DNA of 64,000 bases from Rhizodiscina lignyota (Eukaryota): NCBI GenBank assembly GCA_010015805.1, contig ML978133.1, forward strand, positions 434,001-498,000, written 5' to 3'. Within the stretch, counting starts at the first letter, position 1. Each line of letters opens with the position of its first letter. The translations under genes were made by a program, and so were the position numbers. Of the stretch, positions 12,364 to 43,460 are shown one piece after another. The notes beneath the pieces are model-generated. The model saw only the letters and a program-made list of their open reading frames with translations, was not told the DNA's origin and ran no database searches.

Positions 12364-15300
12364 ATGGACCCTGTTTCAGCTCTTGGTGTTGCAGCAGCGG
12401 CCGTCCAGTTCGTTGAATTCAGCGGCAGCACCGTGAAGACCATTGTCAAAAATTATCGTTCTTTCGGAGCTCAAGGCTTCCTGGATGACTTTCAGCACCT
12501 GAAAAGACAAGCTGAACTTCTAAAGTCTTCTAATCTGCGCCTTAGACGAGCACTGGATGTAAAAGTTTTAAGAAGACAGCCAAATGAGTCCGAGAGGGAT
12601 TTGCTCTCCGTTTCTGAGCAAGCCATCGAAGTCGCCTCAGAAATTCTAAAAGCTCTTGCTGGATTCGATCTTGATTCCGACGACTCAAAAATCAAGGCCA
12701 TACGTAATGCAATCAAAGCAACATGGGATAAGCGGAAGTGGGAGTCACTAGAGAAGCGGTTGTCGGAATCGCGTTCTCAGTTGGCATCTGCTGTTTTGCT
12801 CGGTCTCCGGTAAAAGTCTTCCAAACAAGTACTTCAAGCAGACAGCTGATCGACTCAACGTATAGAGACGAAGTGAGCCAGATTGCTCAAGACATCACCG
12901 CTGTGCGAGACGGGAGCAACGCGTTGTGGAATGGGTCTCTGAACGTTGGAGAAGAAATCATGGAGCAACTCAAGCAAGTGACACAATGGCAGCAAAATCT
13001 GGATACGGCTTTTCAGGAGATGAAGTCCAAGAATATGCCGATGGAGCACATTCTACCAGTCCTTGACGAGGCGCCGTCCAACAAACACGATAGAGCTGAT
13101 TTATTCGCCCTCACACCTCTCACGACAACTCTGATGGATAGGCTTCTGCTCAGCCTGGACTTTCCAAGCATTAACACAAGACAACAGCGCATAGCACACC
13201 CCCATACTAAGACGTTCAAGTGGATATTCAGCCGAAGGTCAGGTTATAAGACATGGTCAAACTTTGCGTCATGGCTTCAGTCTGGTAGTGGTCTCTACTG
13301 GATTACAGGCAAGGCAGGCTCCGGAAAGAGCACACTAATGAAGTTTATCGTACACCACCCAAGGACTAAAACTCTACTTGCCTCGTGGGCTGGGGGTTCC
13401 CCCCCGATTGTCGCTTCTTTCTACTTCTGGCATGCAGGGAACATGATGCAAACATCCCAAGAGGGCCTTCTGCAAACACTCCTATACCAGGCGATAAGTC
13501 AATACCGAATCCTGGCACCGGAGAAGCGTCCTGGACGATGGGCATCTTTCTCACTTTCGAGAGATTTCAATGAGGCCTGGAAATGGCCGGAGCTGGAGAA
13601 GGCCTTCAGATTCTTGCTCGAGGAGCAAGCGCCGTTTCTGAAGTTTTGTTTTCTGATTGATGGTCTGGACGAGTTCAAGGGAGAACTTCAAACCCTTTTA
13701 TCCCTGGTCAAGCGCATCTCTCAGTATCCGAATGTCAAGATATGTGTGTCAAGCAGGCCATGGATGATATTCGAAGATACGTTTCAAGCAAAACCCCAGC
13801 TTATGTTGCAGGACCTAACGCTCCCTGATATAAGAATATATGTCAACGACAATTTGACTCAAACTCCCGGATTCATGGAACTGCGCTGCATGGACGAACA
13901 GTACGCAGCATCTCTGGTCGAAAATATCGCAACAAAAGCGTCAGGAGTCTTTCTTTGGGTTGTGCTGGTTGTAAAGTCACTTCTCGAGGGCTTAAGAGAT
14001 GGCGACCACTTGTCCGACTTGCAAAGAAGACTGGATGAGCTCCCGGAGGAATTGGACGATCTCTTCCGAAGGATACTGCACAATTTTGATACTCGCTATT
14101 TCCGGGACGCATCGGTCTTGTTCCAGCTAGTCAAAGCCTCAGTTTCCCCGCCAACCCTGCTGGCTTTATCCTTTGCTGAGCAGACAAATGAGGATCTTGC
14201 AATCGAGGCAGAGATGAAGCCCCTGACCAGCAATGAGAAATTTTACAGATCTTTGACCATGAGACGACGACTCGATAGCAGATGCAGAGGCCTTCTCGAA
14301 ACCGAGGTTCACGATGACTGGACTGAGGACGATGGTTGGCTTCCAATGAACGAGGACGATGGCTGCCTTCCGATGAACGAGGTCAACAAAGAAGCTCCTG
14401 GGGAAAGAAGAGCCAGGATTTTGAGAGACATGAGCAAACTAGGCCTTAAAGACGCAGATATCCTTGCTAAATCAAAAGTCGACTTCCTACACAGGACTGT
14501 GTCGGAGTTCCTTGAGAGGGCCGACATCTGGGAAAAGTTCCTTGCCGCAACTGACAATTCCTTCAAGCCGTTCGCTGCACTAGCACAATCGTGGCTTCTC
14601 CAACTCAAGAGGGTATATACTGATCCGTTCTTTGACAGCGCCAAGTTTCTGTGGGGTGCTGTTTATGGCGTTCTTGAGTACGCTGGAAAATCAGACACAC
14701 AGGAAATAGTTTCGCAGACGCGCTTGCTTGATGAACTTGACCGTTGTGCAGGGAAGGCTTTCACCGAAAAGCGAGGGCCTGAAAGGATTAGTGTCATGCA
14801 GAAGCAGTTAGGTCACAACTCATCTCACTGGGCTGCTACGACATCGTTTGTAGAAGGTCCAGGGTACACGGACTTTTTAGATGTCGTAATAAGATGCGGG
14901 CTTGCAAGATATGTCCATGAAAAACTAATGAAAGACCCGCCATACATGAGAAGACTCCGGTCGTTTTTCATAGTTGCTCTTGTTGGGTACCCGTTCGCAT
15001 TTGCAAAAGATGATGGATCAACATTTCGTCGTCCCAGGCCGAGCATCGAGATTGTCCGGGTCCTAATGGACCACAGCGAACTCTCGGAGACAACTAAGTC
15101 AAAGTGGTACCAAAAAGCGAGAGCACTCGGACACCCAGCAAGTGATGTTCCTCCCGCCCTGAGCATCGGACAGGAATTCGATCAGGACATTGCACCGAAG
15201 AATCAGTCTAATCAGCAAAAGCCTAAAACTCAACAATCTGCTAGGACGATTCCCCAAAACACAGCAAATGGCTCACTCGAGAGTGATTCCACAGCCTATT

Positions 15301-15398
15301 CATTAGAGACCACTTCACCGACCCAACAAGCACCGAAAGAGAGACAAATCAGATATTGGGAGAAGCTTCTTTTCTGGACGAAGCCATCGCATCCCTGA
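12364..15398 (+). CDS. NACHT/STAND NTPase (fungal NLR-like) with an N-terminal helical SesA/HeLo-like domain
   Basis: N-terminus MDPVSALGVAAAAVQFVEF; Walker A WITGKAGSGKSTLMK; Walker B FLIDGLDE; KICVSSRPW; KASGVFLWV; DFLHRTVSEFL; intron 12810-12865. Confidence 0.9.
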
Positions 15399-37400: not shown

Positions 37401-39689
37401 GCTGGTGGCCTTGGAATCAATCTAATGACAGCCGACACCGTAATTCTCTTCGACTCGGATTGGAATCCACAAGCGGACCTCCAAGCCATGGCTCGAGCTC
37501 ACCGAATCGGCCAGACAAAGCCTGTCACTGTCTATCGCCTTGTGTCGAAGGACACGGTCGAGGAAGAGATTCTAGAACGTGCTAGGAACAAGCTTATGCT
37601 TGAGTTTATCACAATCCAGCGTGGCGTCACTGATCAAGATGCGGATTCAAAGCTTTTTGCAGACAAAGACTTCTCCCAGAGAGTTGCACGTGCTAACAAG
37701 AAGTTGAGCGAGCCCTCTTCATCGGACGATATCTCCCGAATCCTTAAGAAGCGCGGTCAAAAGATGTTCGAGCAGACAGGCAATCAGAAGAAGCTGGAAG
37801 AACTTGATATCGATGCTGTCTTGGCCAATGCCGAGGAGCACAAGACTGAGCAACCCGAAGGCATCACCACGGATGGCGGAGAGGAATTCTTACGAAGCTT
37901 CGAATACACCGATGTCAAGCTTGACGTTGAATGGGACGACATTATCCCCAAGGACCAGCTCGAAGCGATCAAGGCCGAAGAGAAAAAGAAGGAAGAGGAG
38001 CGTTACCTGGCGGAAGTCATCGAGCAGAACCAGCCGCGCAAGAGGAAATCAGCTGCCATTGAAGAACGCGAACAGCGAGCGGCTAAGAAGCGTGCACGCG
38101 TGGCTGCTGCAGCAGACCTTGCAGAAGACGGCTCAGACGATGATTCCAGCCCAGATGAAGACCCGAAGCGCCCTCTGAACGAGAAGGAGTTGCGAAACTT
38201 GATTCGTGCCTACGAACGCTTTGGATCATTTGAAGAGAAGGCCGATGAGATAATCAACGATGCCAAGTTGTCGAGCCGCGACCGCGATCTTCTCAAGTCG
38301 ACCCTCGATGAGGTCATCAGCCACAGTCAGAAGCTCTTGAAAGTGGAGCAAGACAGGGTTGAGAAGTTAGAGAAAGAGACGAACAAGGCTCTCACAAAGA
38401 AGGACAGGAAAGCTGTTCTCTTCGACTTCAAAAACGTCAAGCGCATTAACGCTGAGACCATCATGGAGCGTCCGGCCGAGATGCGCATGCTTCGAAAGGT
38501 TATCGAAACCGCACCGGATTGGAAGAACTTCCGTATACCAGAAGCAGCAAAACCCACCCAGTATACCGCACCTTGGGGCGCACGTGAGGACGGCATGCTC
38601 TGCGTAGGTATCGCCCGTTACGGCTTTGGTGCATGGACACAGATCCGTGATGACCCTGAGCTTGGCTTGGGAGACAAGTTCTATCTCGAAGAGCATCGTG
38701 TGGAGAAGAAAGAGGAGCGCAAGACCGCGGATGATAAGAAGAACATCAAGTCACCTGGAGCTGTGCACCTTGTGCGTCGAGCGAACTATCTTCTTAGCGT
38801 ACTCAAGGACAAGACCAGCAACGGCACGAATATTACCGCCAGGCGCGCACTCGAGAATCATCATCGCAACAACAAGAAGTGGTCTAAGCACGGCATCCGT
38901 GGCGACGCGTCGTCGAGCATCTCCGCTAGCCCTGCGCCATCTGCGTTCTCGTCGAAGACCAAAGTTCGTGGTGAGTTAGAGCAGGCTCGACGCGCCATTA
39001 CCAACGCCACCGACCACCGTCAGCGCGAAGGCCGTCCAAGTGATCATCGTTCGGAGCACCGTTCCAGTGAATATCGTCACAGCTCAGAGCGTCGCGCACC
39101 CAGATCAGATCGTAGGGGCACGCCTGACATTCGTCGACAGCATAGCGGCGACAAGGATGGCAAGCTTCATCGGAGCAAGTCAGACAATCGTACACACGGT
39201 TATCATCGTCACGATAGCAATGGTTCCATCAAGAGAGTCGCATCGAATGGCTCCATCAAGAAGCCTACATCGAATATTGAGGACCATGTGCCAAAGATCT
39301 GCGCTCCAATCGAGAAGCATCTCAAGCGACTTTTGGCAGCTGCATCTGGCACCTTGAAGGAGGCAGATGAGAAGGGCAATCAAGCTCAGATCATCAAGAC
39401 CGAGCTCGTTATTGTAGGCGACTTCATTGAGGGCAAGTGCAAGGAGGGGGGCGCGAATCTGCAGAATCGATTCTGGTAAGTCATCACACTCGCATCCGAT
39501 TAGGTTGGACTAAACTAACACTGGCACAGGGGTTTCGTCGTTGATCACTATTGGCCCAAGAAGAATGTCTTACCCGACACACTTCGCTCAATGTACTTGA
39601 AGATCGTTGCTGCAAAGAAGCAGGAGGGCCATCCGGGCCAGAAGGCGCAAGACAAGGGTAGGCCGCAGGTTGCGGCGGCGCGTGCATAG
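34428..39689 (+). CDS. CHD1: Chromodomain helicase CHD1/Hrp3 chromatin remodeller
   Basis: Double chromodomain, ILADEMGLGKT, DEAH, LLSTRAGGLGINL, QAMARAHRIGQ and a SANT/SLIDE region; last intron 39476-39529. Probable 7-nt first exon at 34428-34434, otherwise the start is 34878. Confidence 0.96.
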
Positions 39690-40110
39690 ATGCCGATGCA
39701 TCTTGCACATCAAAACTTTCTTCGAACGACCAGGGTGGGCTGCAGTTGGCAGCGGCGAGTGCATGGATGCCGATGCGTCTTGTTGCACGTCAATACTTTC
39801 TTCTTTCTTTCTTTGTTTCTTTGAACAGCACAATTGCATACTAGGAACTGGGGACTGGCACCACATTAGGTGCTTCTGATTCTGCTAATGCATAGCCGGG
39901 GCGTGTCTTTACCTTGTTTAAAAGTTTGGGAGGAACTCTCTTTTGGGCCACGATGTTTTCCGGCTCAGGGTTTTCGGCATCGAAGTCGCACGAGCGTATT
40001 GTCAAGATACGCTTCGTCACATTGCGGGCATCTGCTTTTTCTGGATTTCTGCATGCATGTTCTGCTTTACTGCTTTCTTGCATATTCTGCATGTTCTGCT
40101 TTTTTGCATG

Positions 40111-40393
40111 TTCTGCCTCTTCTGCCTCTTCTGCCTCTTCTGCCTCTTCTGCCTCTTCTGCTTCTTCTGCCTCTTCTGCTTTTTCTGCTTTTTCTGCTTT
40201 TTCTGCCTCTACTGCTTTTCTGCTTCTTTTGCCTCTTCTGCCTCTTCTGCCTCTTGTGCTTCTTGTGCCTCTTCTGCTTTTTCTGCCTTTTCTGCCTTTT
40301 CTGCTTTCTCTGCCTTTTCTGCCTTTGCTGTCTTTTCTGCTTCTTCTGCTTCTTCTGCTTCTTCTGCTTCTTCTGCTTCTTCTGCTTCTTCTG
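40111..40393. repeat. 9-bp tandem repeat (TTCTGCYTY), about 31 copies
   Basis: Units ttctgcctc, ttctgcttc and ttctgcttt read directly from the sequence. Confidence 0.95.
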
Positions 40394-40779
40394 TTTTTTT
40401 GTGTTTGCTGCGTTCTGCGTTTGCTACGTCTTCCGCGTTTCAACATCTAGACTGTATTGAGAGTATAGCATGGGAAAGGGATTGTACCTCTGGCGTCTGC
40501 TATTTGTAACCTGTTGTTTGCTAACCGAAGCGGCCTACATACTGGCTGAGGCGGACTGTAATCACTGCTTGTTAGTTGAAGCAGCCTTCGGGTTGAGGCG
40601 ACTAGCAAGTAATGGTTACAGGCCGAGGCAGCTAGTATGTAGGCTGAAGCGGCTGGCACGTAATAGGTTGCAAATAGTAGATACTGAAGATGCATTTCCC
40701 TTTCCTATACTATGCTATCATGCAGTCTGGGTGTCGTGACTCGGAAACGTGGTAAACGTAGACGCAGTAAACGCCGAAA

Positions 40780-41017
40780 GGCAGAAGGGCAGGAGGGCAG
40801 GAAAGCAGAAGGGCGGAAAGGCAGGAAAGCAGAAAAGCAGAAGGGCGGAAGGGTAGAAGGGCAGAAGGGTAGAAGGGTAGAAGGGCAGAAGGGTAGAAGG
40901 GCAGAAGGGCAGAAGGGTGGAAGGGTGGAAGGGTAGAAGGGTAGAAGGGCGGAAGGGCGGAAGGGCAGAAAGGCAGAAAGGCAAAGGACAGAAGGGCAGA
41001 AGGGCAGAAAGGCAGGA
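40780..41017. repeat. 8-bp tandem repeat (GGYRGAAG), about 30 copies, complementary to the 9-bp array
   Basis: Units ggcagaag, ggtagaag and ggcggaag; the reverse complement CTTCTGCC equals the left unit minus one T. Confidence 0.93.
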
Positions 41018-42058
41018 AAACAATGGGCTACAAATAGCCTCCATAGACATTCAATTGACGAAGTATACTTATCCGTTCTTTGAACCTGCTGCGTGCAATG
41101 CTTTCTACGATGAGCGGACAACTCCCCCAATCAGAGCGATTTTGCTTATGTGAGCCCTTACTCTTAAACGTACAGTGATAGTGCACCCTGGTCGGCTGGC
41201 CCACGGGATGTTTGACACCCACCATCCGACCGAGATCATGCGCCTTCGATTCGCACATTTGTGCAACCGAGGCGACTTGCCCGAGTTAGAACACATATGG
41301 CCGCTGTGGCTGCTCCCTTTCTGGCTGATGCGGCCGACGGGGCCAAGGCCAGGCCCGCAAATGGAATGAATCACAAGAAGCAGACTCAGCTCATAAGGCG
41401 CTCTGCCGAGTATCGACATTTCGGCATCTTGCGGTTCTTCTCTCACTGCTCTCCTGTTTCCGCCGCTTCTAATTCTGTATAAGAAGCTTGTTTCCGCCTA
41501 AGATTGAGCTCCTTGGCATCTCGACATTGCACAGTTCTCCTCGTTGGTGCAGTTAGAGGCCTGCTTCACCTCTCATAAAGCCAAATTAAAGTGAACAAGC
41601 TGGTTGCTGATAGGTATGCTATTTCAACACATTCTCCTGAGGGATTTATAGAATCCGTTCATCCGAGTCTCTGTTATGCGCGTACTTCAACGACGAACAA
41701 AGAAATGTCTTGCCGCCTTATATTTCAAGCGCCTCAATCTCACCTCCCTTAATTCATCTTCGAATTGAAGTCTGCAAGGACGCGCTATTAGAGTAGATAT
41801 GGCAGACATGTTTTCACAAGGCCTTCATTTTCCAGCTTGAGGGACCATAGACGTTGCAAATTAAGGCCCTCCGTGTTATGATACCTTCAGTCGAGGCAGT
41901 CTGCAAGGCGCGAACATCATTCCTACTCAGATACCTGAGCCTCACAATAGCACTTCTTTCTGCTACAAACTTTCGTCTTTCATCTATTGAATATCGGCGA
42001 TAGAGCGAAGCCCTCTAACGTTACTCAGGATTCAAGAACTTCTTTCAAACAGGACGTA

Positions 42059-43460
42059 ATGGCTTCTTCACTCCTAGACAGCTCTCTGCAATACCTTGAA
42101 CCCGTCATCGAAACGGCGAAGCAACACGTCGGCCTGACGATCGGCGCCTCCGCAGCGCTCTACATTATCGCCTGCAATGCCTTACGCTTCCAACGCGTTC
42201 GCTGGTGGGAGAAGCATCTCCCATACAAGACACGCGATGACTACTCTCGCATGACTGCGGAGCACGCACGTGAAATCACGCACTATATTGCAGTTGCTGA
42301 GTTCCCTTGGGTTTACCTTAAGGGAATGCAGTTTGCGCTCTTCCGCACGTACGGTATTCCGACCATTTCGAAGCTCCTTGTGGCGACGAAGCAGTTGTCC
42401 TCTCGTGCGCACGCGACAAAGCGTTATGCTGATACGGAGATGCTGCTCGGCGAGTTCACGACACAGAAGGCGGGCTCTGAGCGCTCGAATGCGGCACTGG
42501 CGAGGCTGAATTACATCCATGGAGTGTATCAGAAGAAAGGCCAGATTACCAATGATGATATGCTGTATACGTTGTCGATGTTTGCGCTCGAGCCGAAGAG
42601 GTGGATTGCGCGGTACGAGTGGAGAGAGGTGACTCCGTTAGAGCTCTGCGCCTTGTACGTTATTTACGTCCATTGTCTCTATTGCACACACTGACAAGGA
42701 ATTGTGCAGCGGAACAGAATGGAAAGAGATCGGCGACGCTATGAACATCTCGTACGAGCCTTTGCCTTCGTACGAGAAAGGCTGGAAGGACGGGCTTCAC
42801 TGGGTCGAGGAACTTGACGAGTGGGCTTCTGCGTACGAAGAGAGGTGTATGGTTCCAAACAAGTGGAATCATCAAACCGCGGAGGAGACGACGGCAATGC
42901 TTCTTTACACGGTTCCGGAGTGGGTCAAGCCAATTGGAAGGAACCTTGTGAGCACCTTGATGGACGATAGACTCAGGAAAGCAATGATGTATGTTGTGCT
43001 TTGAAATAATCTAGTACTTTTGTCGAACGAAGCTGATATACAAAGGTATCCTGCACCTCCGCCATCGTACCCAATGTTTGTCAACACAATCTTCCGCATC
43101 CGCAAATTCATCCACAGATACCTCAGCCTTCCGCGCCCGTGGTTCCTCCGCCTTGACTTCGAGTTTCCGCAGGACAAGAAGACAGGCCGACTCCAGCGCA
43201 AGAACTACGAGCATGATCCCTGGTATGTCAAGCCGAGTCTGAAGAACCGATGGGGCAAGCAGGCCTGGATGAATTGGATGAATGGAATGCCAGCCCCAGG
43301 AGATGGTGGCGATAAGTTCTGGCCTCAAGGCGTACACTACAGCGAAATCGGTCCCGCCAGTATGCTGGGGAAGGGTGCAGAAGAAGTTGAGGCGACCAAG
43401 GCGAAACTCATGAGCATGAAGTTGGGAGGCTGCCCGTTTGCGATGGGCAAGGCGACATGA
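42059..43460 (+). CDS. MpaB/DUF2236-like ER-bound oxygenase family protein
   Basis: N-terminal hydrophobic segment, FALFRTYGIPTISKLL, KRYADT, ARLNYIH and ITNDDMLYTLSMFA, C-terminal GCPF; introns 42655-42709 and 42989-43045. Confidence 0.85.

Follow-up and report, generated by a model that had tools for sequence, protein, structure and literature searches.

An intergenic inverted duplication in Rhizodiscina lignyota combines three purine internal loops with a RIP-like, one-strand mutation signature

In filamentous ascomycetes, repeat-induced point mutation (RIP) alters duplicated DNA (10.1101/344036; 10.1101/115501), and in Neurospora it reportedly acts on inverted repeats that lie close together (10.1101/344036). 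RIP mutations have also been scored strand by strand, in passages that contain no statement of a one-strand bias (10.1101/115501). Fungi are further known to have hairpin small-RNA loci, the milRNA and hpRNA loci, which are intergenic stem-loops with strong strand-specific folding (PMC9757828). Foldback transposons, such as Tetris of Drosophila virilis, are described as having inverted arms with short tandem repeats (PMC4079207). The structure described here, an intergenic foldback in a 64,000-nucleotide stretch of Rhizodiscina lignyota DNA (the window), resembles each of these in part.

As in RIP-mutated duplications, the DNA is duplicated over a few hundred base pairs per arm, most of the differences between the arms are C:G to T:A transitions, preferentially CpA to TpA, and TpA/ApT is raised locally, only in the duplicated stretch. 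Unlike them, the foldback has nearly all of its changes on one physical strand, in both arms, and it contains three motif-centred blocks of transversions that are beyond the reach of RIP. With the fungal milRNA and hpRNA loci it shares an intergenic stem-loop and a strong strand-specific fold, and with many small-RNA precursors it shares G.U-rich pairing and symmetric internal loops, but it is much longer than the fungal loci (its core measures 176 nt, and the repeat arms bring it to as much as about 1 kb). We know of no small-RNA precursor that has three repeats of one dyad loop module. Like Tetris, the foldback has a unique middle between long inverted arms in which short tandem repeats make up a part; unlike Tetris, it is present as a single copy in a fungal host, with neither a transposase nor a clear target-site duplication.

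The window is fungal nuclear DNA of low coding density, with introns and with genes for CHD1, a NACHT-type NLR, JmjC/cupin and UNC-45-like proteins and others. The NLR-type gene is represented by an 886-aa ORF at 12738-15398 that has NPHP3_N, NACHT and DUF7791 domains. The foldback itself is intergenic, lying about 0.35 kb past the stop codon of CHD1 and about 1 kb before a gene for an mpaB-like oxygenase, and both of these genes are on the + strand (Table 1). The long CHD1 ORF stops at a TAA overlapping the GTAAGT of a splice donor (39476-39481). The final intron (39476-39529) has a CTAAC branch site and a CAG acceptor ending at 39529, and the HYWPK..MY.K pattern of the last exon follows the CHD1 match in five of the 28 metagenome CHD1 loci described below. 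From the last CHD1 codons into the 3' flank runs a 77-bp tandem duplication (39651-39803; 1.9 copies, 81% matches), and the differences between its copies include several transitions. On the other side of the foldback, the best homologue of the oxygenase has an identity of 67%, a value suggesting that the protein database contains no close relative; most of the named hits come from Dothideomycetes, at about 50-58%. The domain PF09995 is annotated in the homologues, yet it gives no score on the 41987-42694 ORF alone. As the homologues are about 400 aa long, the oxygenase gene probably extends past this ORF.

Table 1. Positions of the features of the foldback and of the genes on either side of it, numbered from the first letter of the window.
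Feature	Position	Strand	Details
CHD1 last exon and stop	39530..39689	+	Translation GFVVDHYWPKK... to TAG (39687-39689); 52 codons
Left-arm tandem repeat	40085..40393		Unit TTCTGCCTC, 9 bp, about 35 copies; Tandem Repeats Finder
Left arm, outer unique part	40394..40498		Pairs with 40679-40785 (arm-to-arm alignment)
Core hairpin	40499..40678	+	88 columns per arm: 62 Watson-Crick, 13 G.U, 2 A.C, 11 transversion mismatches
Dyad motif 1L	40523..40535	+	AACCG-AAG-CGGCC; opposite 1R, loop 1
Dyad motif 2L	40544..40556	+	GGCTG-AGG-CGGAC; opposite 2R, loop 2
Dyad motif 3L	40574..40586	+	AGTTG-AAG-CAGCC; opposite 3R, loop 3
Apical tetraloop TTCG	40587..40590	+	C-G closing pair, giving C(UUCG)G on the + strand
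Dyad motif 3R	40591..40603	+	GGTTG-AGG-CGACT; three mismatches to the 13-mer consensus
Dyad motif 2R	40621..40633	+	GGCCG-AGG-CAGCT
Dyad motif 1R	40642..40654	+	GGCTG-AAG-CGGCT
Loop 1 triplets	40528-30/40647-49	+	AAG/AAG
Loop 2 triplets	40549-51/40626-28	+	AGG/AGG
Loop 3 triplets	40579-81/40596-98	+	AAG/AGG
Right arm, outer unique part	40679..40775		Fold and arm-to-arm alignment
Right-arm tandem repeat	40776..41015		Unit GAAGGGCA, 8 bp, about 30 copies; Tandem Repeats Finder
mpaB-like oxygenase ORF	41987-42694	+	Homologous to ER-bound oxygenase mpaB / rubber-oxygenase-like proteins

When folded as RNA, the + strand of 40502-40675 (also delimited as 40500-40675) forms a long hairpin interrupted by three 3 x 3 purine loops. 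The 176-nt core has a folding energy of -107 kcal/mol, compared with a mean of -54.7 kcal/mol for shuffled sequences (z -13.1, with 0 of 200 shuffles as good) and with a minimum free energy of -67.9 kcal/mol for the - strand of the same core. An earlier note on this DNA had described a hairpin at 40520-40655 with three identical loops of this kind. Sequence, fold and triplet coordinates all place the loops where that note had them, and they are of one type, ARG facing ARG; they are not identical, since the three pairs are AAG/AAG, AGG/AGG and AAG/AGG. The helix lengths that it gave also need some amendment, the 27-bp helix being made up of 25 pairs and two 1 x 1 mismatches (A/G and C/A), and the 18-bp and 5-bp helices containing G.U pairs. 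On the + strand each of the six sides of the loops has the sequence G-ARG-C, and within the hairpin GARGC is found six times on + and 0 times on -. The energy model charges +0.4 kcal/mol for each of the purine loops on the + strand, against +2.0 for each of the pyrimidine loops on the - strand. Loop 1 is separated from loop 2 by a spacing of 21 nt.

Could such loops arise by the random decay of an inverted repeat? The 88 columns of the core contain 11 transversion-type mismatches, and nine of these fall in three runs of three. When 11 mismatches were placed randomly, at least three such runs were obtained in one of 200,000 permutation trials (P about 5e-6). Clustering of this degree puts the loops beyond point-mutational decay, as had been supposed, and we conclude that the three purine loops are real and non-random.

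Each loop triplet is centred in a 13-nt motif with self-complementary flanks, for which the consensus is GGCYG-ARG-CRGCC; the local palindromes remarked on earlier are thus present at every loop. Five of the six copies have at most two mismatches from the 13-mer consensus. Deviations from GGCCG...CGGCC are mostly transitions, and those of the inner flanks from CCG...CGG are transitions without exception. There are three copies in each arm, and they have the same sense in both arms. Because the flanks are dyad-symmetric, the motif can pair across the hairpin in either orientation, save for its asymmetric central triplet, which alone shows the orientation and cannot pair; purine centres face purine centres because all six copies share one sense. 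If orientation were random, the probability of finding all six motifs on one strand would be 2/64, or 0.03. To change CTT into AAG takes three transversions or, equivalently, a single 3-nt micro-inversion. The triplets are alike within pairs 1 and 2 and unlike between pairs, a pattern that, as read from the sequence, fits inversion of the centres and does not fit independent mutation.

The shorter version of the motif, CYGARGCRG, occurs four times on the + strand of the window, all of them within the core, and five times on the - strand; by these counts there is no enrichment elsewhere in the 64 kb. Two more overlapping dyads of the GGCYG-NNN-CRGCC type, GGCTGATGCGGCC and GGCCGACGGGGCC, are found at 41323-41344, about 0.7 kb downstream of the hairpin and outside the foldback.

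Two structural roles that had been suggested for the loops fare poorly. Mini-hairpins formed by the six single motifs are worth only -0.8 to -3.6 kcal/mol each, compared with -107 kcal/mol for the long hairpin, which argues against their serving as branch points for an alternative cruciform. Sheared tandem G.A motifs have the order 5'-GA-3' or 5'-GNA-3' on each strand. All six strands here read 5'-A-R-G-3', the reverse of that order, and sheared G.A modules are correspondingly disfavoured.

The hairpin extends well beyond the limits first given to it. Good pairing covers 40440-40739, and an inverted repeat spans 40131-41015; the hairpin forms the core of an inverted duplication, or foldback, that measures about 0.9-1 kb (40020-41040). 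When the window is compared with itself, 40131-41015 matches its reverse complement in an alignment of 918 columns with 70.6% identity, which gives arms of about 440 bp. From the outside inwards, each arm consists of a short tandem repeat, about 100 bp of unique sequence and the 88-nt core. The reverse complement of the left repeat unit, GAGGCAGAA, mirrors the right-arm repeat, the two units being reverse complements save for one base per unit. The fold of 40440-40745 reaches -179.3 kcal/mol on the + strand and -119.9 kcal/mol on the - strand, with 21 G.U among its 126 pairs, and for the whole of 40020-41040 (1021 nt) the values are -602.9 and -414.7 kcal/mol. This foldback of about 1 kb with its tandem-repeat arms, the RIP-like signature in its G.U pairs and its single-copy state were all absent from the earlier note.

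Past the tandem repeats, no palindromy was found in the unique flanks, where the best local score was 22 compared with a maximum of 26 in 200 shuffles. As judged by eye, a weak direct similarity brackets the array, with CATTGCGGGCAT near 40020 and CAATGGGCTAC near 41023. The left-arm base of the core hairpin (40499-40519) has a second complementary partner at 41018-41038, just past the right repeat, with 18 of 21 nt matching; two direct copies of one segment of about 20 nt thereby bracket the right repeat, and there is no counterpart to the left of the left repeat. Read from the core outward, each arm begins with an ATG and a basic segment resembling KRGxRRSKRR, after which comes low-complexity sequence encoded by the tandem repeat (39841-40446 on the - strand and 40712-40936 on the + strand), and the period-9 repeat of the left arm stays in frame as E/A/K repeats. 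Searches with these arm ORFs found no Pfam domain, only low-complexity noise, and no homologue, including for the unique part of the 201-aa ORF. In Rfam, the whole window gave 0 hits at the gathering score, and the sole weak hit for 39900-41200 was mir-1827, a chance match scoring 21 bits where the cut-off is 82.

As DNA, the two arms share only about 70% identity, and their differences are far from uniform in kind. Arm-to-arm alignment of 40394-40785 gives 39 transition and 17 transversion differences. The loop triplets account for nine of the 17 transversions, and outside the loops there are about seven other single transversions in 192 aligned columns. Among the 39 transitions, 32 are of the G.U type, that is C to T on the + strand, and seven are of the A.C type (binomial P 7e-5); the T's of the G.U-type differences are shared between the arms, 19 in the left and 13 in the right. 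The pyrimidine opposite G on the + strand is T in 17 of 31 cases before A, compared with 15 of 66 otherwise (odds ratio 4.1, P 0.003), and when CpA targets are counted on each strand, 17 of 31 have been converted on + compared with two of 19 on - (P 0.002). The base counts of 40394-40785 are C 78, G 109, T 114 and A 91, where a palindrome is expected to hold as many C as G and as many A as T.

The usual cut-offs for the RIP indices are 0.89 for TpA/ApT and 1.03 for (CpA+TpG)/(ApC+GpT). TpA/ApT reaches 2.29 in the core and 1.63 across 40394-40785, compared with 0.61 in the window, and the second index is 1.00-1.04 here and 1.30 in the window. When the window is divided into 400-bp bins, the top seven all fall inside the foldback. 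The changes in the tandem repeats have the same polarity, with T in place of the C of GGCA/GGCG in eight of 25 scorable units on the right (GGTAG in six, GGTGG in two) and CTA in place of CTG in one of 29 units on the left. The signature is RIP-like, restricted to the only duplicated DNA of the window and nearly all on its + strand. A single RIP event may tend to fall on one strand.

A mutation process of this kind has a direct consequence for folding. On the + strand, C-to-T changes turn C-G pairs into U.G pairs, and for this reason the + strand can form a near-continuous hairpin when the - strand cannot. Since such changes preserve pairing, a G.U excess and a strand-specific fold are not in themselves proof of selection on an RNA. 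One-strand RIP acting on an inverted duplication, a known process, explains most of the G.U-rich hairpin, though not the same-sense motifs that create the loops.

The number of copies and the distribution of the foldback bear on its origin. Among public runs, the stretch was found in a single one and in no RNA run. Of the 15,746 contigs of that run, one matches the stretch at a likeness of at least 80%; it is the same as 40394-40775, with 0 differences and a mean word depth of 147, in a run that may be the window's own source data. Self-comparison revealed no second copy of the foldback in the 64-kb window. The foldback is single-copy at a likeness of at least 80%, a level at which more degraded copies would escape. 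An orthologue scan of metagenomes with the CHD1 C-terminus gave 28 loci of 39-66% identity, which come from distant organisms and are uninformative on close relatives. Comparison of these 28 loci with 39480-42000 by blastn gave nothing above a 54-nt, 80% low-complexity match, and a local inverted repeat of at least 40 bp was found at 0 of the 28.

The reading that we favour, tentatively and at somewhat less than an even chance, is that the locus is a single-copy inverted duplication scarred by RIP, in which the motif centres either escaped inversion or were flipped by template switching. The ancestral arm would already have carried three copies of the small dyad motif. When the inverted copy was formed, or later, the centres in one arm would have been left un-inverted, or else flipped through template switching at the 5-bp GC-rich mini-palindromes. 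The identity of the triplets within pairs (AAG/AAG and AGG/AGG) would be as expected from descent with flipping. One-strand RIP would then have produced the good + strand RNA fold as a by-product, and the loops would have no selected function. Small hairpin-flanked inversions, known as loop 'flip-flop' and involving template switching, are best known from plastid genomes. The present motifs are like them in having an asymmetric short centre between self-complementary flanks, in an orientation opposite to that predicted by descent; they are unlike them in that the stems are only 5 bp and the three flips would all be in one arm of a larger palindrome.

This relic reading has its weak points. It calls for three independent flips at 5-bp stems in a foldback that has only about seven other single transversions, and free flipping still gives six of six motifs on the same strand with a probability of about 0.03. 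Moreover, the + strand is shared by four features, namely the purine loops, the C-to-T changes, the C(UUCG)G apex and the sense in which both flanking genes are coded. This four-way coincidence is not predicted by a neutral relic.

Both the strand coincidence and the uniform orientation of the motifs would be accounted for if the + strand were a functional hairpin RNA, an alternative that we consider rather unlikely overall. A putative transcript of this kind would come from read-through of CHD1, whose stop is so close upstream, or from a transcript beginning upstream of the mpaB-like gene, both genes having the same sense. Dicer might process it into small RNAs, or it might serve, between same-sense genes, as an element for termination or for cleavage of the RNase III type. 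The symmetric purine loops would then be selected modules, for the docking of a dimeric protein or as marks of the cleavage register. Several properties of the structure are in keeping with this, among them the much better folding of the + strand both in the core and over the whole foldback, its many G.U pairs, the low energetic cost of the purine loops, the C(UUCG)G apex and the 21-nt spacing of loops 1 and 2, and fungi do have hairpin small-RNA loci (PMC9757828). Against it, one-strand RIP yields a G.U excess without selection, as C-to-T changes on the + strand never break + strand pairs; there is no match to an Rfam family; and the structure far exceeds the typical length of a fungal milRNA hairpin.

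A more specific form of the RNA proposal, which must be counted less probable again, would make the whole of the roughly 1-kb + strand an RNA element whose core modules are predicted to dock a homodimeric RNA-binding or RNase III-type protein and so to set cleavage or termination. Each module would consist of a 13-nt strand facing an identical 13-nt strand, with a centre of A.G, R.R and G.A, and one-strand RIP would have broken the DNA palindrome and spared the RNA structure. A function for the loops is possible but unproven.

The motifs might instead act as double-stranded DNA, the six copies being candidate sites for a Zn2Cys6 factor in a regulatory cluster upstream of the mpaB-like gene, a proposal that we think improbable. 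Far/CTF1 factors bind CCTCGG, the complement of CCGAGG (PMC5068947), and the likely ancestral motif, CCG-ARG-CGG, would be an everted CGG pair, its AGG form (CCG-AGG-CGG) also holding CCGAGG. The flanks have the form CYG...CRG, with every deviation from CCG...CGG a transition; a + strand gene has its likely start about 1.4 kb downstream of the cluster; and a spacing of 21 bp between sites 1 and 2 amounts to about two turns of B-DNA. The sites, candidates by their sequence, differ from everted CGG sites and the Far/CTF1 element in that transitions have eroded five copies out of six and all six have a uniform orientation. CCG-N3-CGG is intact in one of the six sites and CCGAGG likewise in one of six, other parts of the window show no enrichment of the motif, and no fatty-acid or peroxisomal gene was identified adjacent to the cluster. 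Nor do dimer dyad sites need a fixed orientation of the spacer, which leaves the six-of-six same sense unaccounted for.

About equally doubtful is the possibility that the foldback is what remains of a DNA transposon of the foldback type (FB-like or MULE-like) or of a MITE, with the arms as terminal repeats and the dyads as putative transposase-binding sites. An architecture with short tandem repeats outside and unique sequence inside would suit such an element, but the foldback is single-copy both among the contigs, at a likeness of at least 80%, and in the window; 39500-42700 contains no transposase-like ORF; the putative target duplication is not significant, alignment of the flanks being no better than that of shuffles; and the unique flanks are non-palindromic. 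Finally, palindromes and GGC-rich motifs are known sequencing trouble spots, but an assembly or sequencing artefact, whether a chimeric palindromic read or motif-specific errors, is very improbable, since an artefactual fold-back would have identical arms and these differ, in a structured way, at about 30% of positions, and since a separately built contig, possibly from the same data, reproduces 40394-40775 exactly.

If the locus is neutral, as the RIP-scarred duplication that we tentatively favour would be, it provides a clean natural case in which one-strand RIP has made a DNA palindrome pair well on one strand only. It would then also carry a caution, that selection on an RNA need not lie behind a G.U excess and a strand-specific fold when these are met in fungal inverted repeats, and would suggest that small dyad motifs within palindromes can escape inversion. 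Should the RNA reading prove true, the foldback would represent a fungal hairpin element of a new kind, one in which a symmetric loop module is repeated.
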